A DNA stretch of 32,000 bases from positions 600,001-632,000 of the forward strand of contig NZ_AP019769.1 of NCBI RefSeq assembly GCF_023169545.1. Direction: 5' to 3'. The translations under genes were made by a program, and so were the position numbers. Source of the stretch: Nanobdella aerobiophila (GTDB lineage Archaea > Nanobdellota > Nanobdellia > Nanobdellales > Nanobdellaceae). Shown piece after piece: positions 3,400-32,000 of this stretch. Position 1 is the stretch's first letter. Each line of letters starts with the position of its first letter. The notes under the pieces were generated by a model. That model saw only the letters and a list, made by a program, of their open reading frames with translations. It searched no databases and had not been told where the DNA came from.

Positions 3400-4061
3400 A
3401 TCTGGCAGTATTATATTCGGGTGGGAAAGATTCTAATTATTCATTATTTATAACTTCTAAATATTACAAGGTATCTGTATTATTAAATATTATTCCAAAA
3501 AATAATGAAAGTTATTTATATCAATATATAAATAACAAAATAACATTATTGCAGGCAAAAGCATTAAGTATAGATATATATAGAGCAGAAGTAAATGAAT
3601 CAGAAGAAAAAACATTAAAAGAAGCTTTAATATATCTAAAAAAAGAATATAATATTGATGGATTAGTAACTGGTGCAATAAGATCCACATACCAAGGATC
3701 TAAATTTCAAAAAATTTGTAAAGATTTAAAATTATGGTGCTTTAATCCTATATGGTTAATAAACGAAAAAATATATATTAAAGAATTAATAAAAAATAAT
3801 TTTGAATTTATAATTACGGGATGGTATTCTTACCCATTAGATATAGATATTTTAGGAAAAAAAGTCAATACATATATATTAAATAAACTAATAGAATATA
3901 ATAAAAAATATGGAATAAATATAGCTGGAGAAGGTGGGGAATATGAAACAATAGTACTATACCAACCACTATTTAAAAAAAGGATAAATATAGAAAAATA
4001 TAGGATAAATATAGAAAAAAATTATGCCGAATATATTATAGAAAAAGCTAGTCTGATATGA
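3396..4061 (+). CDS. dph6: Diphthine-ammonia ligase (Dph6 / MJ0570-PH1257 family PP-loop ATPase)
   Basis: It has the PP-loop LYSGGKDSNY at the N-terminus and the family-specific AGEGGEYET motif near the C-terminus. It is about 220 aa and collinear with my memory of archaeal MJ0570/PH1257-type proteins. Confidence 0.85.
   Translation: MNLAVLYSGGKDSNYSLFITSKYYKVSVLLNIIPKNNESYLYQYINNKITLLQAKALSIDIYRAEVNESEEKTLKEALIYLKKEYNIDGLVTGAIRSTYQGSKFQKICKDLKLWCFNPIWLINEKIYIKELIKNNFEFIITGWYSYPLDIDILGKKVNTYILNKLIEYNKKYGINIAGEGGEYETIVLYQPLFKKRINIEKYRINIEKNYAEYIIEKASLI
3981..4022 (+). repeat. In-frame 21-bp tandem duplication (2 copies, 1 mismatch) in the dph6 3' end
   Basis: aggataaatatagaaaaatat (3981-4001) is followed by aggataaatatagaaaaaaat (4002-4022). 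Together they encode RINIEKY/RINIEKN. Confidence 0.85.
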
Positions 4062-4582
4062 TAGGGGTAATATATACAAATAAATATAAATTGTCTAGAA
4101 GAGAATTTCTAAGACCTATATTATATATATTGAAAGAAAATAAAATTAAATATAAAATATTTTCATATAAAAAAATAGCTAATAATGTAGATAAAATAAT
4201 AATTACAGGAACTGCGATAATGGATTTTGATTATTTAAATTATATAGATAATTTTAAGTTTATAATAGAAAAAGATATAAAAACACTAGCAATATGTTCT
4301 GGATCACAAATTATAACAAAATTACTAGGTTATAAATTAATAAATAAAGAAATAATTGGAAAATATAATATAAATCTAGTAAATGAGAATATTTTTACAG
4401 ATAAAGATTTTGAAGCATATTTTTTAATAACTAAGGTACCCCAAATAGATAAAAAATTTAATATATATGGAAAACTAAACAATATCCCCGTATTTTACAA
4501 TTACAAAAATATATATTTTACATTATTTCATCCAGAAGTTTTAAATAAATATATTATATTAAAATTTCTATATAATATATAA
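4058..4582 (+). CDS. Class I glutamine amidotransferase-like protein (stand-alone GATase subunit)
   Basis: The nucleophile elbow is LAICSGSQ (compare GICxGxQ) and the C-terminal FHPEV supplies the His-Glu of the triad. It is 174 aa, similar in size to GuaA subunit A-type GATases. The start overlaps the dph6 stop (ATGA at 4058-4061). Confidence 0.7.
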   Translation: MIGVIYTNKYKLSRREFLRPILYILKENKIKYKIFSYKKIANNVDKIIITGTAIMDFDYLNYIDNFKFIIEKDIKTLAICSGSQIITKLLGYKLINKEIIGKYNINLVNENIFTDKDFEAYFLITKVPQIDKKFNIYGKLNNIPVFYNYKNIYFTLFHPEVLNKYIILKFLYNI

Positions 4583-4585
4583 TAT

Positions 4586-4638
4586 CCCTACCGAGGGTAA
4601 CCTTAGATTTATGAAAAGGTAGAGTTGGTGGGGGTACA
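4586..4638 (+). ncRNA. H/ACA box guide sRNA (single hairpin); predicted target is the 23S helix-69 loop U equivalent to E. coli U1917
   Basis: Lower stem: CCCUACC (4586-4592) with GGUGGGG (4627-4633). Pocket: GAGGGUA (4593-4599) opposite AGAGUU (4621-4626). Upper stem: ACCUU (4600-4604) with AAGGU (4616-4620). The apical loop AGAUUUAUGAA has facing GA/GA dinucleotides. The ACA box lies at 4636-4638, 15 nt from the pocket top. The pocket strands pair with 23S AACUC-UG-ACCCUC (complement of plus 30972-30984). Confidence 0.7.
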
Positions 4639-4693
4639 TAATGAAGATGCCATGTCCCAGTCTGATATATGATGAAAGGAGTAGCTACAGATA
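4639..4693 (+). ncRNA. Candidate C/D box sRNA directly abutting the H/ACA hairpin
   Basis: Box order is C AUGAAGA (4641-4647), 14 nt, D' CUGA (4662-4665), UAU, C' AUGAUGA (4669-4675), 12 nt, D CAGA (4688-4691), about 51 nt overall. The D-guide GGAGUAGCU (4678-4686) is perfectly complementary to 23S rRNA (plus-strand text ggagtagct, 30467-30475). The terminal boxes are non-canonical and the first spacer is long, so confidence is modest. Confidence 0.4.
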
Positions 4694-4739
4694 AAAATAT
4701 TAATAATTATTAAAACAAAATTAATTTAATATAAAAAAT

Positions 4740-6638
4740 TTATTCTTCTATCTTCTCTTTCTTATTTCCACCTCTTCCTCTTGATTCTAATAATACTGCA
4801 GCTATTATTATTATCGCAACTGCTACTAATATCCAAAATACTATCGATTCTAAATTATATGTAGGTGTTATTAATTGTTCTCCCGTCGAAGTATATGTTT
4901 GATTTAATGAATATAATATCTCTCCATTATTTGCATTTATTACATCTACATAAACTGTTACATTTCCAGATTCTGCTGTTACATTTAATGGTATTGTCTC
5001 TGAATATGTTCCACCTATTTGTACATTTTCTTCCTTTGGATATACTTTTCCACCTACTGCATATGATTGTATTATTAAATTATATATTGATGTTGTATTT
5101 GCTGTTAGTATCAGGTCTATTGTTGTATTCTGACCAACTGATAATGGTTGGTATGCTTCTAAAGATGCTGATATTGGAGTATATACAGGTACTGATCCAT
5201 TTACATATATATTATATGGATATACTTCTTGTGCTCCATTATACAAGAATACAATATTTAATGGATAATAACCTGCCTGTAGATTATTTGGTATATATAT
5301 TACCACTGGCAATTGCTCTACTTGATTTGGAGATAATGTAATTGTTGATAATTGCTGATTTATATTTAATTCTTCTGATTGTATCATTGGGGTTACCTGT
5401 ACTTCCATTGGCAAACTATCTTGTAATTGTATTTGCAATTGTACATATGATCCTGGTAGTATATTATATGTATTTGGTTCTACTGATATTACATTAACTG
5501 GATTTATTGAATTTTGATCTATTGCTACAGTATAATTATATTGATTTACTACAACTCCATTTTGATATAAATATAATATTATATTGTAATATCCTGGACT
5601 TAATTCTTCTGTATTTAATGGCAATGTTATCTCAGATTGTTGACCTGGTTGTACATCTTGTGAATTCATTAAATTATATTCTAGATATCCATATTCATTA
5701 TATAATAATAATTGTACTGTTGCATTTACAGTTTGATATCCTGAATTCTGTAATAATAAATTTATATCATATATTGAGTTTCCTAATGATTGCAATGAAT
5801 TAAAGTTTGGCGATATTGATAATACCTGTAAATTTTCTCCATTTTCATTATTCGATATATAGAATGATTGTTCTGCTACTTGGTTTAATACCTGACCATT
5901 ATCCAATACTACAGTTAATTGTTCTTCTGCATATAGTTGTCCATATATATTTTGTAGATCATAGTTTGGAACATTTATTGTCAATAAATTCTCTCCCGGC
6001 TGTAATTGTACATCTTCCTGTGTCTGATATACAATACTACCATCTTGACCATATAATGTCAGTGTCAATGTAGCTGATTGTATATTTGTCCCTATATTTT
6101 GTAGATAAGATACTGACTGTATATTTAATCCATTTTCAGATGCTTGTACTGATGATATTACTTCTGGTAAATTTACCATCGATAATGTAAAATTATATGG
6201 TACAAATGTAATATTATAACTTTCCTGACCTGTAGCTATATCTTCAACTCCATTAGAATATATTAATGATACATTTGCCTCTACTGTGAAATTATTGTAT
6301 CCATTAGAATATTCTTGAACTAACTGCTGTAATTGTAAAGGATTTACAGATATATCATATATATTTAATCCTGTTCCTACAGTTACTGGCTCATAATATT
6401 GATACACTAATTGTCCATTTGGTGCAAATATATCAAAATATAGGTATGATTCTACTGGTACCTGATTCACTCCTAATAACTTTACTATAAATGTCATATT
6501 ATTCATAGAATTTGCCAATAATGTCTGCGTCTGTGGTTCTATTATTATTTCCTGCGAATATACTGCTAATCCTACTATCCCTAATGCTCCTAAAACAAAA
6601 GAAAGCTTCTTAAGTGTTGTCACTAGTCGATTATTCAT
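4740..6638 (-). CDS. Large cell-surface protein (S-layer/adhesin candidate) with tandem CARDB-like beta-sandwich repeats and a C-terminal TM anchor
   Basis: The N-terminal signal/TM is LSFVLGALGIVGLAVYS. The C-terminal TM IVFWILVAVAIIIIAAVLL is followed by a basic tail, RGRGGNKKEK. About five roughly 100-aa modules rich in N/Q/Y/V show CARDB-like endings (for example GQQSEITLPLNTEELSPGYYNIILYLYQNG and GTYSETIPLNVTAESGNVTVYVDV). There are many N-x-S/T sequons. Confidence 0.7.
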   Translation of the reverse strand: MNNRLVTTLKKLSFVLGALGIVGLAVYSQEIIIEPQTQTLLANSMNNMTFIVKLLGVNQVPVESYLYFDIFAPNGQLVYQYYEPVTVGTGLNIYDISVNPLQLQQLVQEYSNGYNNFTVEANVSLIYSNGVEDIATGQESYNITFVPYNFTLSMVNLPEVISSVQASENGLNIQSVSYLQNIGTNIQSATLTLTLYGQDGSIVYQTQEDVQLQPGENLLTINVPNYDLQNIYGQLYAEEQLTVVLDNGQVLNQVAEQSFYISNNENGENLQVLSISPNFNSLQSLGNSIYDINLLLQNSGYQTVNATVQLLLYNEYGYLEYNLMNSQDVQPGQQSEITLPLNTEELSPGYYNIILYLYQNGVVVNQYNYTVAIDQNSINPVNVISVEPNTYNILPGSYVQLQIQLQDSLPMEVQVTPMIQSEELNINQQLSTITLSPNQVEQLPVVIYIPNNLQAGYYPLNIVFLYNGAQEVYPYNIYVNGSVPVYTPISASLEAYQPLSVGQNTTIDLILTANTTSIYNLIIQSYAVGGKVYPKEENVQIGGTYSETIPLNVTAESGNVTVYVDVINANNGEILYSLNQTYTSTGEQLITPTYNLESIVFWILVAVAIIIIAAVLLESRGRGGNKKEKIEE

Positions 6639-8247: not shown

Positions 8248-8315
8248 AATATGATATATTATATTATTTTTATAAATATATAATATTTATAAAGACCTGT
8301 AGAAAATAATATGAA

Positions 8316-8519
8316 ATGGTAAAAATAAAGATAAACAGAGATTTATGTATAGGATCAGCAGCTTGTGTTGCAGCATGTCCAGAAATATTCTATCTAGACA
8401 ATGATGGAAAGGTTGCATTAAAATCGGACAATGTTGATGAAAATAAAGATCCTGAACTAGCAGAAAAAGTAAAAGATGCTGCACAGTCCTGTCCAACAGG
8501 AGTAATATCCTTAGAGTGA
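8316..8519 (+). CDS. Mono-cluster ferredoxin (Pyrococcus Fd-like), paralog 1; Ser at the second ligand position
   Basis: The motif is CIGSAACVAACP ... SCPTGVI, that is C11-x2-S14-x2-C17-x3-C21P plus a distal CP. The numbering is the same as I recall for P. furiosus ferredoxin, which has Asp14 at that position. Confidence 0.85.
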   Translation: MVKIKINRDLCIGSAACVAACPEIFYLDNDGKVALKSDNVDENKDPELAEKVKDAAQSCPTGVISLE

Positions 8520-8710
8520 GAGTTAGAGTAGATAAAAATACATGTATAGGGTGCGGTACATGTATTGCCATAGCTCCAGAAATTTTTGATTTTGATAAAG
8601 ATGGGAAATCAATAAACAAAATAGAGGAGATAGAAGATGAAAAGTTGATAGAAGAAGCCAGAGATTCTAAAATTGCCTGTCCAACAGGATCTATATTTTT
8701 GGATGAGTAA
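8516..8710 (+). CDS. Mono-cluster [4Fe-4S] ferredoxin, paralog 2
   Basis: The motif is CIGCGTC ... ACPTGSI (CxxCxxC...CP). The GTG start overlaps the stop of paralog 1 (GTGA at 8516-8519). Confidence 0.85.
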   Translation: MRVRVDKNTCIGCGTCIAIAPEIFDFDKDGKSINKIEEIEDEKLIEEARDSKIACPTGSIFLDE

Positions 8711-8909
8711 ATATTTTATAGATATAGATTATAATAAATGTATAAATTGTTTAGCATGCTATTTAATAGATAAAGACGATTTTGATATAGTCAATAATAG
8801 AATAAAAATCAAGAACAGGTTCATATCAGATGATAAATCGATAAATAATGTAAAAAAAGCTTCTGAAGCTTGTCCTGTCAATGCTATATATTATGAAGAA
8901 ATTTCTTGA
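8703..8909 (+). CDS. Mono-cluster [4Fe-4S] ferredoxin, paralog 3
   Basis: The motif is CINCLAC ... ACPVNAI. I prefer the in-frame ATG at 8703 (MSKYFIDIDYNKC...), which overlaps the paralog 2 stop by 8 nt, over the track start at 8673. It gives the same spacing from N-terminus to first Cys as the other two paralogs. Confidence 0.8.
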   Translation: MSKYFIDIDYNKCINCLACYLIDKDDFDIVNNRIKIKNRFISDDKSINNVKKASEACPVNAIYYEEIS

Positions 8910-8951
8910 TAAACAAAAAGATTAATAAATAATAAAAAATTTCTATAGATT

Positions 8952-9530
8952 ATGGTATTTTATAATATATTTATAACATTATTAACAAATATTGGATTCT
9001 TTAATATTATAGTTCCTTTTTTACTAGTTTATGCTGTAATGTATGGATTATTATCTAATTATAAAATAATAGGAGATCCATTCAAAGATGATCCTTCTGG
9101 AAAAGCAGTAAGGAGTATAATATCCATGATTGCTGCAGCTACTGGCTTTTTGGTTGTAGGAGCTGCAAATATTGTATTATCCTTAAATCAATTGATTCCA
9201 TATATAGTTTTATTTATATTAACTGTATTCTTCTTACTAATTGCTATATCTCCATTAGTATCAAAAGACGGAAAGATAGACCTAGATAAGAATACTAAAA
9301 GATTATTAGTTATAATAGCTGTTATAATATTTTCTATAGTATTAATATTTTCACTAGGACTCGTAAATTATTTAATGTCTATAGGAAAAGCAATTAGTAA
9401 CAACTCATTACCACCAGAGATAATAAACTTTATAGAAACAATAGTAATATTATTAATAATGTTTGGAATTGTATTCTTTACAATAAGAACTCCAAAGGCA
9501 AAAGAAGAAAAGAAGGATAATAGTAAATAA
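8952..9530 (+). CDS. Uncharacterized polytopic membrane protein, paralog 1 of 3
   Basis: It opens with IGFFNIIVPFLLVYAVMYGLL, has about 4-5 TM segments, and ends in a Lys/Glu tail, RTPKAKEEKKDNSK. It shares this architecture with the next two ORFs. Confidence 0.7.
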   Translation: MVFYNIFITLLTNIGFFNIIVPFLLVYAVMYGLLSNYKIIGDPFKDDPSGKAVRSIISMIAAATGFLVVGAANIVLSLNQLIPYIVLFILTVFFLLIAISPLVSKDGKIDLDKNTKRLLVIIAVIIFSIVLIFSLGLVNYLMSIGKAISNNSLPPEIINFIETIVILLIMFGIVFFTIRTPKAKEEKKDNSK

Positions 9531-19729: not shown

Positions 19730-20707
19730 ATGAATATTATATTTTATGTATTCATAGCAATACTAATACCATTATTGTTATACGCTTTTGTAATATATCT
19801 TTCCGAAAATATACTATTAAAATATGTAGAAAAATATTCTAAATACTATTCTTCATGGCCAAAATATTATTTATTAGTATATACTGCTGGTATTGCCTCT
19901 GCTCTACAATCATTCTTACCAGGATTATTAGTGGATATACTAGGAAAAGCTAAACTAGCCTTTTATTTCCAATTATACAATGTAGCCTTAGATTATACAG
20001 TAACATTAGGAACATTTATACTGGCATTTAATTTTAATAAAGGGATAATAGATAAAAATTTACTAGTATATATAACAATATCATATATATTAGAATTAAT
20101 ATTTTTATCTACTAAGGTAATAACGTATTTTGATGGTATAATATTGTATTTATCATTTATAATAATGTCCATAATAATATTTTATAAGTACAGAACAAAA
20201 AAGGAGAAAATTGAATATAAAGAAGAGAATAGTTTATATAGTTATTTCAAAGCATTGGTTTATACATTAGAGATAGGACTTGCGGTATCTTTAATATATG
20301 TTGGAGGTAATGTATTAAATAATATATCAAATACTTTATCCAATCTTGGTTTTTCTATACCGCTAATCGGCTTTTTAATTGCTATAATATTATTTACATT
20401 ACCCGATATAATATATGGACATTTGAGTTGGTTCAAAGAAAAGGACTTAAATACTAGTATAGCATCAATAACGGGAGAAGAGATAAGCGAATTTACAATC
20501 TTTACTGGAATATTAGCAATGATACACCCTATAGTATTTACAAACATCGATGTTATACCTATAATATCTACAATGTCTATTATGTACGTATCTATTCTAA
20601 TTTTGTTCTTTTCTTCTTATAGAGGAAAGATACCAAGGTGGGTCGGCATTATATTAATAGTATTAGGACTTTTAATGGGTTTTGTAGATGGTATTGTAAA
20701 TATATAA
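19730..20707 (+). CDS. Polytopic membrane protein, possibly a CaCA (Na+/Ca2+ exchanger, YrbG)-like two-repeat transporter
   Basis: About 10 TM segments fall into two halves separated by a charged loop (YRTKKEKIEYKEEN). Weak echoes of CaCA alpha-repeats appear (GIASALQSFLPGL and IAIILFTLPDI versus GTSLPE). The functional call is tentative. Confidence 0.5.
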   Translation: MNIIFYVFIAILIPLLLYAFVIYLSENILLKYVEKYSKYYSSWPKYYLLVYTAGIASALQSFLPGLLVDILGKAKLAFYFQLYNVALDYTVTLGTFILAFNFNKGIIDKNLLVYITISYILELIFLSTKVITYFDGIILYLSFIIMSIIIFYKYRTKKEKIEYKEENSLYSYFKALVYTLEIGLAVSLIYVGGNVLNNISNTLSNLGFSIPLIGFLIAIILFTLPDIIYGHLSWFKEKDLNTSIASITGEEISEFTIFTGILAMIHPIVFTNIDVIPIISTMSIMYVSILILFFSSYRGKIPRWVGIILIVLGLLMGFVDGIVNI

Positions 20708-20742
20708 TAATTTAAAAAGCTTACTTATATTCTTCATAATAA

Positions 20743-20859
20743 ATGAAAAGAAGTTCAAGAAGATGGAAAAAATATTTAAGATCTAGATGGAAATGGCAAA
20801 GAAGGAGAATTAGAGAAGAAAAGAGGCTTAGAAAGGTTACTAGACTTAGGGCTTTATAA
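20743..20859 (+). CDS. rpl41e: Ribosomal protein L41e (eL41), 38 aa, below the ORF-track cutoff
   Basis: My own translation is MKRSSRRWKKYLRSRWKWQRRRIREEKRLRKVTRLRAL. It is extremely Arg/Lys-rich with the RWKW..RRIR core I recall from archaeal L41e. Confidence 0.8.
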   Translation: MKRSSRRWKKYLRSRWKWQRRRIREEKRLRKVTRLRAL

Positions 20860-20885
20860 AGGTTGTGGAAATAAGCTTTTAAATA
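20853..20885 (+). promoter_or_regulatory. Candidate 16S rRNA promoter region (two TATA-like boxes)
   Basis: TTTATAAA (20853-20860) and TTTTAAATA (20877-20885) lie upstream of the 16S leader. The second box sits about 21 nt before the leader hairpin (20906). AT-rich background makes this weak. Confidence 0.3.
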
Positions 20886-20905
20886 TTAAGATAAAATCTT
20901 TCTAA

Positions 20906-20962
20906 ATACCTATGTGGTGTAGTCCTATAGATCAATGATATAGGAAATCTGAACATAGGTAT
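20906..20962 (+). other. Structured element in the 16S 5' leader: 10-bp stem, symmetric 8x8 internal loop, 6-bp stem, 9-nt loop
   Basis: AUACCUAUGU (20906-20915) pairs perfectly with ACAUAGGUAU (20953-20962). CCUAUA (20924-20929) pairs with UAUAGG (20939-20944). The internal loop is GGUGUAGU opposite AAAUCUGA. The apical loop is GAUCAAUGA, with GA...GA facing each other. Confidence 0.35.
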
Positions 20963-20994
20963 AAAAGATGTAGAGATAATCTGAAAAAGGGATA

Positions 20995-21008
20995 ATTGTA
21001 GTGGAATT
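20995..21008 (+). repeat. 5' arm of the 16S-flanking inverted repeat (pre-rRNA processing stem)
   Basis: ATTGTAGTGGAATT (20995-21008) is complementary to AATTCTACTACAAT (22544-22557): 14 bp with one G-U. Confidence 0.6.
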
Positions 21009-21055
21009 AGCGGTCATACTTCTTGGGTTAAAGCCCACGGTGGTGATCCACCGAA

Positions 21056-22536
<1,481 letters not shown>

Positions 22537-22543
22537 TAGTTAA

Positions 22544-28515: not shown

Positions 28516-30009
28516 ATGGTTAATATGAGATTCGTAGATAATATTAAATTAGAACTCCCAAAGGATAAGATTCAAACAAATATAATATATCCAATTATAG
28601 AACCATTTTCTTATGCTCATATATATTTTGATCAAAATAAACTAGATATAATATATGAAATCATAGAGCCAAAATTATCAGAAAGTGAAAGATCAGTTTA
28701 TGAAAATATAGTATATTATATAAAAAGATTATTATTCGTAAAGCTATCTGAAATAAATGATTTTAATCAAATAATGTCATATTTAGAAAGATTATATAAA
28801 TTTGTACTAAACGATCTAGGTATAAAATTAAATCAAGAATCTTATGATAAAATATTTTATTATATTTATAGAGATCTATACGGATATAATAGTATAGAAC
28901 CATTAATGAGGGATATATTTATAGAAGATATAGAATGTTCTGGCTCTAATTTACCAATATTTATAGCACATAGATATTTTGGAAATTTAAAAACAAATAT
29001 AATATTATCAGATAAAGATGTAAGAGATATAATTGAAAAATTCGCTTTAAGATCTGGAAAACATATATCTTATGCAGAACCATTATTAGATGCTACTTTA
29101 CCAGATGGTTCTAGAATCAATGCAACATATTCTCAAGATATCACTACAAATGGTCCAACATTTACTGTAAGAAAATTTAGAGAAAATCCATGGACACCAA
29201 TAGAACTAATTAGACTTGGTACGATAAGTCCAGAAATTTTAGCATATCTATGGCTAGCTATAGAATATAAGAAAAATATGATTGTCATAGGTGGTACTGC
29301 ATCTGGAAAAACTACAATGTTGAATGCAATATCTATGTTTATACCACCGCAGGCAAGAATAATTTCTATAGAAGATACAAGAGAAATAAGATTGTATCAT
29401 GATAATTGGATTCCATCTATATCAAGATATTCTTCTGATAGAAATAAGGAAATAGATATGTATGATTTATTAAGGATGTCATTCAGACAAAGACCTGACT
29501 ATGTAATTGTCGGAGAAGTAAGAGGAGAAGAAGCTTATGTAATGTTTCAGGGCATGGCATCCGGTCATGCTGCTTTATCTACAATGCATGCAGAAAGTTC
29601 TAGATCCTTAGTACAAAGGCTTATATCACCACCTATAAATTTATCTAAATCACTAATAGAGCTATTAAATATAGTGATTATAATGCAACACGATAATTTA
29701 AATGGAATAAATATTAGAAGAGTAAAAGAAATAGATGAAATAATAAAATATAATAGATTTAATAAAGCTTATATATGGAACCCATTTAAAAAAGAATATT
29801 TAGAAAATCCAAGAAAATATTTACTAAAGATAATTGAAAGAGACTATGGTATCGAATATGATAAATTATATAAAGAATATAAAAGAAGAATAAAGTTATT
29901 AAGAAGGCTATCAGAACTAAATATTTCAGATTTTCAAACATTTTCAAAAATAATACAAACTTATTATTATAATAAAGATTATATACTAAATTACTATAAA
30001 ATAAAATAA
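28516..30009 (+). CDS. FlaI/ArlI-PilB family secretion ATPase (archaeal type IV filament assembly ATPase)
   Basis: Motifs: Walker A VIGGTASGKTTMLNA, Asp box IISIEDTREI, Walker B DYVIVGEVRGEEA, His box GHAALSTMHA. It is divergently transcribed from the FlaJ-like halves across a 44-bp spacer. Confidence 0.9.
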   Translation: MVNMRFVDNIKLELPKDKIQTNIIYPIIEPFSYAHIYFDQNKLDIIYEIIEPKLSESERSVYENIVYYIKRLLFVKLSEINDFNQIMSYLERLYKFVLNDLGIKLNQESYDKIFYYIYRDLYGYNSIEPLMRDIFIEDIECSGSNLPIFIAHRYFGNLKTNIILSDKDVRDIIEKFALRSGKHISYAEPLLDATLPDGSRINATYSQDITTNGPTFTVRKFRENPWTPIELIRLGTISPEILAYLWLAIEYKKNMIVIGGTASGKTTMLNAISMFIPPQARIISIEDTREIRLYHDNWIPSISRYSSDRNKEIDMYDLLRMSFRQRPDYVIVGEVRGEEAYVMFQGMASGHAALSTMHAESSRSLVQRLISPPINLSKSLIELLNIVIIMQHDNLNGINIRRVKEIDEIIKYNRFNKAYIWNPFKKEYLENPRKYLLKIIERDYGIEYDKLYKEYKRRIKLLRRLSELNISDFQTFSKIIQTYYYNKDYILNYYKIK

Positions 30010-30017
30010 AATTATTA

Positions 30018-32000
30018 GGGTTCGAGTAGATTATATAGCTTCACGGGATATTCAGATAGTCAGCTGAACTCCTTTACGGAGCTTACACTGCTATCTTAAC
30101 GGATCTTCTATCCGAGCCCTTAATGGCTGTCTATTTTCAAGGAAGGCTTCACCCTTAGATGCTTTCAGGGCTTATCCTTCAGGGTGTGGCTACCGGGCCT
30201 GCCCTTTTCGGACAACCCGTAAACTAGAGACCCCGATCCACCGTTCCTTTCGTACTAGGTGGACCTTTCCCTCAGACAGCCGACACTTCCGACAGTTATA
30301 ACCGAGCTGCCTCGCGGCGCTCTAAACCCATCTCACGATCTCCTTTAATGGGTGGGCACCCCCACCCTTGGCGGCTTCTGCACCACCAGGATGGAGAGAG
30401 ACGACATCGATGTCGCAAACCGCGGGGTCAATAGGGGCTCTCGCCCGCGACGGCGCTGTTACCCCCGGAGTAGCTTTTTCGCCAGCCCATACCCCCACCA
30501 AAGGGAGTATGGGGTTCGCTAGGCCCAGGTTTCCCTCCTGTATCCCTTGATGGTCAGGATACAGCCAGGCTAGCTTTTGGCCTTGTCCTCTACAGCGGAT
30601 TTCTAACCCGCTTGAGCTAACCATATGGACCCTGCCGATATCTTTTCGGCAAGGTGCCGCCCCAGCCAAACTGTCCACCTGCTGATGTTCCCTTTCGGGT
30701 CAGCCTTAAAAGATTTGGAGGTGGGTGTTTCATCGTCGCATCTTTCTTACCTAGCGGCAAGAATTCATAGCTCCCCACTACACTACACACCAAATCTTTC
30801 AAGGCAACAGCAAGCTACAGTTAAGCTTCACGGGGTCTTTTTTACCCATCGGAAGTCCCTGGCTTTCTCACCAGGATGGCTTTTCAGGAGGTACCAGCCC
30901 GGGACAGTGGCGGACTAGTTACGTCGTTCGCAAAGCCGGCAATTAACCGGCAAGGCATTACGCTACCTTAAGAGGGTCAGAGTTACCCCCGCCGTTTACC
31001 GGTCCTTAGCTCCCTTGAACGGGAGGTTCAGATACCGACACTGAGCAGACGTCACCCCCAGTACACATCCTTTCGGACTAGCTGGGAGCTATGTCTTTAA
31101 TAAACAGTCCGCCCGCCCTTGTAACTGCGACCTGCAGTACTATGTACCGCAGGCATCCCTTATCCCAAAGTTACGGGACCATTTTGCCGAGTTCCCTGGA
31201 CTGGTTTAACCTCACGGCCTTAGGCTGTTCACCCAGAGGACCAATACTGGATTGCGGTACGATCGTTCGGAATCGCATCTTTTTCCTTTTCATTGCTAGA
31301 AGGCCTCGGCAGAACCTTTCGGCCCGTCAGGATTTAAGCTGGTTCTCATCATGACGATACTCCCCAGCTTTATCTCCCTTAGTATGATAGGTAGATTTTA
31401 CTCTACCCTCATATCTGCCTAGCCCTCTAGGTCGGAAAAAGAAGTTGCGTCACCGCATCTATCCGAACGGTAGAGGAATATTAACCTCTTTCCCTTTCTC
31501 CGAATCCCTCTCGGGAATCGGATTAGGATCGACTAACCCCAAGCTGATCTTCATAGCTTGGGAAACCTTTCCCCCTTCGGCCAATAGGATTCTCACCTAT
31601 CTCATTCTTACTACCGCAGAGATCTTCATTCTCAACGGCTCCAGGTTTCCTTTCAGAAACCCTTCTAGGCCATTGAGACGCCCACCTACCTCACGCCGGA
31701 CAATGTCCAGCGGACTAAGGTCTCGGCAGCCAACTTAGACCCGTCCGTTTGCGGAGCCTATCTCCTCGCCAGGTGAGTTGTTACACACTCCTTAGATGAT
31801 AGCCACTATTGGGCCCACATCCCTGGTGTCTTAGGAAATAGACTCCTTCTAAATCTATTAGCTGGCATTTTGGGGCCTTAACCTTAGTCTCGGTTGTTCC
31901 CGTCTCGGAATTGCGGATTTCCCGCAATCCCCTGCTCCCAGATAAAGGACCTTACAGCTTCGGAGTTGGACTCTATATGGGAATCCCATATAAAATCCGT
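30018..32000 (-). rRNA. rrl: 23S ribosomal RNA, 3' roughly two-thirds (5' part lies beyond the window end)
   Basis: The reverse complement contains CCUGAAAGCAUCUAAG (near the 3' end), the sarcin-ricin loop AGUACGAAAGGAAC, the PTC strand GGGGGUAACAGCG, GACAUCGAUGUCG, and H69-H71 GGUAAACGGCGGGGGUAACUCUGACCCUCUUAAGGUAGCG. It is GC-rich. The 3' end is approximate to about 15 nt. Confidence 0.95.

Follow-up and report, generated by a model that had tools for sequence, protein, structure and literature searches.

A candidate H/ACA guide RNA for helix 69 of 23S rRNA, followed by a C/D box sRNA, downstream of an amidotransferase gene in Nanobdella aerobiophila

What is encoded in the G+C-rich spacer behind an amidotransferase gene (4058-4582) of Nanobdella aerobiophila, an archaeon with a 75% A+T genome? 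We analyzed a stretch of 32,000 nucleotides (nt) from contig NZ_AP019769.1 (positions 600,001 to 632,000, forward strand; hereafter the window), in which G+C is about 25% outside the ribosomal RNA (rRNA) genes. The G+C island at 4584-4671 is the only one in spacer DNA outside those genes, and it does not lie within a listed open reading frame (ORF). A first-pass annotation of the same DNA had described an island of about 110 nt here and had read a hairpin in it as an H/ACA guide RNA for helix 69 (H69) of 23S rRNA. The island is present but comprises two genes, an H/ACA hairpin and a C/D box small RNA (sRNA); the interpretation of the hairpin as an H/ACA guide is supported. The hairpin combines the structure, motifs and spacing of such guides with a complementarity found only once in the rRNA scanned and with conservation that includes a compensatory change. 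We consider it probable that 4584-4638 on the plus strand is a functional H/ACA guide for the equivalent of Escherichia coli U1917 in H69. The parts of the candidate are as follows.

4584-4638, plus strand: whole single-hairpin box H/ACA sRNA candidate, 55 nt, delimited by its fold and by five conserved loci
4584-4592, plus strand: lower stem P1, 5' strand, pairing with 4627-4635 (9 base pairs, bp)
4593-4598, plus strand: 5' guide strand GAGGGU, predicted to pair with 23S ACCCUC (E. coli 1919-1924 equivalent)
4599 with 4621, plus strand: closing layer of the upper stem, A.A here and G-U or A-U in relatives
4600-4604, plus strand: upper stem P2, 5' strand ACCUU, pairing with 4616-4620
4605-4615, plus strand: K-loop A-GA-UUUAU-GA-A (AGAUUUAUGAA, 11 nt), with tandem sheared G4606.A4614 and A4607.G4613
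4616-4620, plus strand: upper stem P2, 3' strand AAGGU, pairing with 4600-4604
4622-4626, plus strand: 3' guide strand GAGUU, predicted to pair with 23S AACUC (E. coli 1912-1916 equivalent)
4627-4635, plus strand: lower stem P1, 3' strand, pairing with 4584-4592
4636-4638, plus strand: ACA box, invariant in the five homologs

The candidate gene begins 1-2 nt past the amidotransferase stop codon, and its G-U pairs fix the strand as plus. The coordinates first assigned to the stems, pocket strands, loop and ACA were all exact against the sequence, and RNAfold returned the same fold with two stems (-21.2 kcal/mol, z = -2.87, equally good folds in 1 of 200 shuffles). The lower stem had been described as 7 bp followed by an unpaired GU. 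Its core of CCCUACC (4586-4592) with GGUGGGG (4627-4633) is correct, and U4585-G4634 and A4584-U4635 also pair, extending the stem to 9 bp; the GU therefore belongs to the stem and the ACA box lies directly 3' of it. The internal loop consists of GAGGGUA (4593-4599) and AGAGUU (4621-4626), i.e., 7 + 6 nt, or 6 + 5 nt if the closing layer forms. Both guides had been recognized in these strands; A4599 and A4621 are better assigned to the closing layer of the upper stem than to target pairing. The 15 nt counted between the upper stem (U4620) and the ACA box (4621-4635) were counted correctly and called canonical, and the functional spacing, 14 nt from the last target-pairing base plus the target, is still canonical. 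A K-loop had been suggested for the apex, and the GA/GA motif is indeed there, in an N-GA-(5-6 nt)-GA-A layout typical of K-loops that stays constant amid varying neighbours. This apical K-loop would be the binding site of L7Ae. TATA-like strings upstream of the hairpin carry little information, the DNA being 75% A+T and overlapping the end of a coding sequence (CDS), and a promoter and terminator scan was set aside because it models bacterial signals.

All of these values lie within the published descriptor of archaeal H/ACA sRNAs. It specifies at least 7 bp (7-9) for the lower stem and at least 5 bp for the upper, with 5-11 nt in each strand of the internal loop. The apical loop has 8-35 nt and contains a K-turn or K-loop, and an ANA box lies 14-16 nt from the top of the pocket. 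Here the lower stem has 9 bp, the upper stem 5-6 bp, the loop strands 6-7 and 5-6 nt and the apical loop 11 nt, with an ACA box at a spacing of 14-15 nt.

The predicted target lies in the same window, where the minus-strand 23S context at helix 69 reads GGGGGUAACUCUGACCCUCUUAAGGUAGCG.

30972-30984, minus strand: predicted target AACUC-U-G-ACCCUC in the 23S helix 69 loop, with the target U opposite plus-strand A30979

GAGUU is complementary to AACUC and GAGGGU to ACCCUC, so that 5 + 6 = 11 Watson-Crick pairs surround a U-G that alone remains unpaired, the arrangement (a U and one 3' base unpaired) seen in H/ACA guides. We take the target U to be the equivalent of E. coli U1917, by an alignment to the E. 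coli H69 sequence that agrees with the alignment made in the first-pass annotation. A systematic scan with H/ACA geometry covered the 16S and partial 23S (3' two thirds) of the window and the full 23S of the related Nanobdellota archaeon YN1 as a proxy. It recovered the bipartite match as the sole 11-pair site, the next best sites having 7-8 pairs. Chance had been judged very unlikely, and the controls bear this out: when the 11 pocket bases were shuffled 5000 times, 5 of the shuffled pockets (0.1%, P about 0.001) reached 11 Watson-Crick pairs anywhere, and none of 5000 uniform random pockets did, while 2-3% of control pockets do as well when G-U pairs are allowed. The duplexes of guide and target (-9.9 kcal/mol for the 5' guide, and -3.2 kcal/mol) are large relative to the cost of opening the pocket (about 3.4 kcal/mol). 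A register in which U4598-G4622 closes the upper stem was rejected; it gives 10 layers at the expense of a 13-nt spacing and four unpaired target bases. U1917 is still the sole exposed U in that register, and the target call is unchanged.

Might the hairpin be a genuine H/ACA guide with another main or additional substrate, such as the 5' third of its own 23S, a transfer RNA (tRNA), or U1915 in an atypical register? The own-genome scan comprised 16S and two thirds of 23S, with the remainder covered through the YN1 proxy, and a given H/ACA motif in archaea can act at two or more sites. Moreover, stem-loop 2 (SL2) of Haloferax sR-h45 and, in our reading, stem 2 of the Nanoarchaeum equitans H/ACA sRNA pair in a UNUN register, in which both uridines of H69 are exposed. 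No other site exceeded 7-8 pairs in any scanned rRNA, however, and there is no tRNA gene in the window. The U1915 equivalent is paired with A4623 in this guide, and the UNUN register yields just 7.5 pair-equivalents. A different or extra substrate therefore appears quite improbable.

Conservation was evaluated on relatives' contigs obtained by looking up protein homologs of the amidotransferase. Four other Nanobdellota sequences carry the same hairpin, again 1-2 nt past the stop codon of the amidotransferase: YN1, the Nanopusillaceae metagenome-assembled genome (MAG) KM4331-08, and one JGI and one ENA metagenome contig. The comparative check proposed at the outset was thus positive, with five syntenic copies in which stem pairing is kept. 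All five fold into stem, internal loop and stem at -20 to -23 kcal/mol, and the covariance model R1 scored every copy at 83-89 bits. The nine lower-stem pairs form in all five sequences of the alignment; four of them vary, one by a double change from C-G to U-A and three by one-sided G-U changes. The upper stem ACCUU/AAGGU is invariant and carries no covariation information. The GA/GA motif, the guide cores AGGGU and GAGU, and the ACA are also invariant. Variation is found in the base flanking the K-loop (A, G or C), in its loop of 5-6 nt (UUUAU, UUAUAU, UUAAU, UUUGAU, UCAAU), and at the pocket bottom, 4593 being G or A and 4626 being U or A. Relatives would accordingly form 10 rather than 11 target pairs. 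H69 itself is identical to that of the window in YN1 and KM4331-08, the two relatives whose 23S was compared.

Searches beyond this synteny group added no further copies. In two more distant relatives in which the amidotransferase is present (L003 and L023), no H/ACA hairpin was found downstream at the locus, and another sequence (L026) ends at the amidotransferase stop codon. A scan of a genome collection with a degenerate pattern returned only two known relatives and 15 bacterial chance matches. The pattern required GAGTT and AGA/GAA and was too strict, given that loci L021 and L022 carry GAGTA together with GGA or CGA; the scan is therefore no evidence that other Nanobdellota species lack the hairpin. 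With a relaxed pattern, a metagenome scan produced two chance matches and nothing else, and it missed the JGI contig known through the protein route. Viral contigs gave chance matches only, which were used as negative controls.

Some of the comparative evidence weighs against a conserved guide. The hairpin is 82-86% identical among the homologs versus 79-80% for the neighbouring CDS, only a slight excess, and the covariation is thin, with one double change among five close sequences, no variation in the upper stem and no significance in the shuffle controls. The conservation is thus statistically weak, the sequences being few and close. Short conserved stretches align easily in a 75% A+T genome, and a chance G+C-rich hairpin or a functionless remnant barely more conserved than its flanks might look like this. 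Against such an origin, the hairpin has kept its position in five genomes although the proteins encoded next to it are only about 70% identical, and every stem substitution retains pairing. None of the 137 chance matches to the primary pattern in bacterial and viral DNA had both a lower stem of at least 7 pairs and an upper stem of at least 4, and the fold z-score is -2.9. We regard a chance or decayed hairpin as very improbable.

Further points weigh against guide activity. From the closing pair to the distal G.A pair, the upper stem has 9 layers in relatives (closing A-U or G-U, 5 bp, N.A and two G.A), and in N. aerobiophila 9 if the A.A mismatch is counted and 8 if not. According to Toffano-Nioche et al., nearly all active Pyrococcus folds have 10 layers, and those with 8, 9 or 11 are mostly inactive, whereas Majumder et al. 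put the range in general at 9-10 layers. Nine layers thus fall within the latter and within the 8-11 range, and below the 10-layer rule. RNAfold and RNAalifold closed most of the pocket by weak A-U and G-U pairs, leaving an internal loop of 3x2 to 5x4. No Rfam H/ACA family matched the hairpin even at E values up to 10, in a gathering-threshold scan and in permissive scans of 4400-4900, 20700-21060 and 8250-8960. A miss is expected for short lineage-specific guides and argues against membership in a described family only, not in the class. The cbf5, nop10 and gar1 genes and the L7Ae gene are not in the 32-kb window, to which the search was confined, and the literature surveyed held no statement on Cbf5 in Nanobdella or YN1. 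To our knowledge, Cbf5 and L7Ae are near-universal in Archaea. N. equitans encodes the COG0130 synthase NEQ454.

Could the hairpin then be an L7Ae-binding K-loop element without guide activity, serving as part of a C/D precursor or as a module of the amidotransferase 3' untranslated region (UTR), with the H69 match a coincidence? The closed pocket of the consensus fold and an upper stem one layer under the Pyrococcus optimum would be in line with this, as would the C/D unit that always lies 2 nt downstream. A second K-loop/ANA hairpin in the window (20906-20963) is conserved in YN1 with covariation in the lower stem, and has an unconserved internal loop and no rRNA match; such shapes can therefore exist here as non-guides, which again counts against guide function. 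A coincidence, however, would have to produce 11 pairs with correct UN geometry and n+15 spacing, as only about 0.1% of shuffled pockets do, and to do so at the very position of helix 69 to which H/ACA RNAs are directed in other archaea and in eukaryotes. The guide core is also constant while the lower stem and loop vary. A K-loop element that does not guide modification is, in our assessment, unlikely, though it is the chief alternative, mainly on account of the second hairpin.

The following scheme is proposed for the H/ACA guide. The RNA would be transcribed, L7Ae would sit on the apical K-loop, and Cbf5, with Nop10 and Gar1, would bind the ACA box and the lower stem of 9 bp. The helix-69 loop would pair with both guides in the pocket, AACUC with GAGUU and ACCCUC with GAGGGU. 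U1917 and the next G, left without partners, would then lie just beneath the upper stem in the active site of Cbf5, where the U would be isomerised to pseudouridine. Transcription, protein binding and catalysis are what we infer from the sequence features described above.

A motif scan identified the second gene of the island as a C/D box sRNA, separated from the ACA of the H/ACA hairpin by 2 nt.

4641-4691, plus strand: C/D box sRNA, with C AUGAAGA at 4641-4647, D' CUGA at 4662-4665, C' AUGAUGA at 4669-4675 and D CAGA at 4688-4691
30655-30666, minus strand: predicted D' guide target GCUG[G]GGCGGCA in the 23S P-loop, with the bracketed G at about 30662

This unit has the four boxes of the archaeal C/D class, guides in its range of 10-14 nt, and rRNA complementarity that puts a predicted target 5 nt upstream of D or D'; its Rfam matches were weak C/D matches only, the best being snR67, sR2 and sR12. 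It is conserved in the five hairpin loci and in L023, and the core of the D' guide, GUCCCAGU, is kept in all six and pairs with the 23S P-loop. The G that would be targeted is presumably the equivalent of E. coli G2251 (Gm2251), and yeast snR67 guides the P-loop 2'-O-methylguanosine (Gm). The D' target string matches that listed for the D' guide of N. equitans sRNA4, and the D guide of the window has the same core as the D guide of N. equitans sRNA14. Relatives carry another D guide with an 11-bp match to 23S, and the D guides overall have 23S matches of 9-11 bp. In L023, the same D' guide occurs in a C/D sRNA that has no H/ACA hairpin upstream and a second C/D sRNA downstream.

The spacer 3' of the amidotransferase gene may accordingly be viewed as a small cluster of rRNA-modification guides, which would arise either by cutting of one precursor or as a composite RNA. 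That the hairpin and the C/D unit stay joined, as a chimeric guide of about 108 nt from the amidotransferase 3' UTR bearing both Cbf5 and fibrillarin particles, is conceivable though rather doubtful. If they do, one transcript would deliver two highly conserved large-subunit modifications, the helix-69 pseudouridine and the P-loop Gm, and a much-reduced archaeal genome would have retained an equivalent of the composite small Cajal body-specific RNAs (scaRNAs) of eukaryotes.

The candidate would add an apparently undescribed rRNA-modification guide to N. aerobiophila, a DPANN archaeon in cultivation, and to the four Nanobdellota sequences that share the hairpin. RNA-guided modification of helix 69, an inter-subunit bridge contacting the A- and P-site tRNAs, would then persist even in genomes of about 0.67 Mb. 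At about 55 nt and with 9 layers in its upper stem, the hairpin is also a small natural example on which the 10-layer rule proposed for active archaeal H/ACA particles could be tried. Its use lies in annotation and in asking how far H/ACA architecture can be reduced, and it reveals no new mechanism.

Elsewhere in the window, Rfam detected a complete 16S (21055-22543, plus strand) and the 3' two thirds of a 23S (30031-32000, minus strand; LSU_rRNA_archaea), and nothing else. The two rRNA genes are not linked: about 7.5 kb separates them, and they lie on opposite strands. Between them are tgt, S19 and archaellum or pilus genes, namely two T2SSF-family genes and FlaI. YN1 and KM4331-08 have the same arrangement.

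28516-30009: FlaI ATPase, like the amidotransferase (4058-4582) 100% identical to a protein of N. aerobiophila

The second hairpin (20906-20963, plus strand; YN1 homolog at L149 3923-3981) lies about 90 nt upstream of 16S and is followed by a conserved tail to about 20986. It has a K-loop A-GA-UCAAU-GA-U, a lower stem of 8 bp with several compensatory changes between Nanobdella and YN1, and an AUA box that is ACA in YN1. Its internal loop has 7 + 7 nt here and is small and made up of A and U alone in YN1, and the search for an rRNA target gave none. A conserved AUGUAGAGAnAAUCUGA after the hairpin resembles a minimal C/D motif. This hairpin may be an L7Ae-binding element of the pre-16S leader. 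Just upstream, an Arg/Lys/Trp-rich ORF of 38 amino acids (aa; 20743-20859, plus strand; MKRSSRRWKKYLRSRWKWQRRRIREEKRLRKVTRLRAL) is conserved in YN1 (L149 3765-3881) and had no Pfam match; we presume a resemblance of its product to ribosomal protein L41e. On the other side of the guide cluster from the amidotransferase, a candidate surface protein of 632 aa (4740-6638, minus strand) has a hydrophobic segment in its N-terminal part, and a charged tail lies behind its C-terminal membrane anchor. No Pfam domain was detected in this protein, and homologs of 645-650 aa occupy the same position in relatives.

How does the candidate compare with known guides? RNAs of the H/ACA class that guide modification of this helix-69 site have previously been described from Pyrococcus, haloarchaea, yeast and human. 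In Pyrococcus abyssi, motif 3 of Pab40 (P. furiosus Pf7 motif 3; Archaeoglobus Afu4 motif 3) directs pseudouridylation of 23S position 2016; stem-loop 69 has two highly conserved pseudouridines, and this is one of them. It has, like the Nanobdella hairpin, a 5' guide of 6 nt, a 3' guide of 5 nt and a lower stem of 9 bp (subfamily '65', 10/5/9 fold). It differs in being one of three hairpins of a long sRNA, in having a K-turn rather than a K-loop, and in its GA stem of 10 layers versus 9 in Nanobdella. The likeness is one of pocket class; Rfam models detected no sequence or covariance-model similarity. Another P. abyssi RNA, Pab21 (Pf1), is a precedent for the joined arrangement, an H/ACA hairpin connected to a C/D motif of which forms with and without the C/D part both occur in vivo; it targets 16S 891 instead.

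In Haloferax volcanii, SL2 of sR-h45 is likewise an H/ACA hairpin for helix 69; it makes pseudouridines 1940 and 1942 (E. coli 1915 and 1917) and needs its ACA box and G.A pairs (Majumder et al.). The haloarchaeal RNA has two hairpins with a 56-nt linker, and its UNUN pocket modifies both uridines, unlike the Nanobdella hairpin, which would expose U1917 alone in the typical UN configuration. The two H69 pseudouridines are guided by snR191 in yeast and U19 in human (Majumder et al.). These eukaryotic RNAs share the H69 sites, and the best weak Rfam match of the C/D unit is also to a yeast RNA, snR67. They differ in having two hairpins with H and ACA boxes and no K-loop, and show no sequence homology.

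The closest comparison by lineage is within the phylum, with the H/ACA sRNA of N. equitans, an RNA of 159 nt between NEQ389 and NEQ392 that is confirmed by RNA-seq (Randau 2012). The pocket of its stem 2, GAGAGU(C) / (U)GUUA, is complementary to H69 ACUCUC / UAAC of the same organism, with 10 Watson-Crick pairs around an unpaired U-G-U-A (UNUN register); the H69 used for this comparison was a 22-nt fragment assembled from the C/D target strings in Randau 2012. As in Nanobdella, one guide base beside the upper stem is unpaired on each side. The N. equitans RNA differs in its two hairpins with K-turns, its genomic context, its lack of an adjacent C/D sRNA and its UNUN register, and the target predictions published for it with RNAsnoop are other sites, not H69 (Randau 2012). 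In addition, C/D sRNA11 and sRNA22 of N. equitans are predicted to methylate helix 69 at 23S 2003 and 2010 (Randau 2012), the latter being the U1917 equivalent. Judged by these predicted targets, helix 69 is a modification hotspot in the phylum, with different guide types per lineage. The 5' guides of N. equitans and Nanobdella differ exactly where their H69 sequences differ, a covariation of guide and target across lineages that supports the assignment of the Nanobdella hairpin to H69, and suggests that an H69 guide may be common across the phylum, tracking the changes in the H69 stem.

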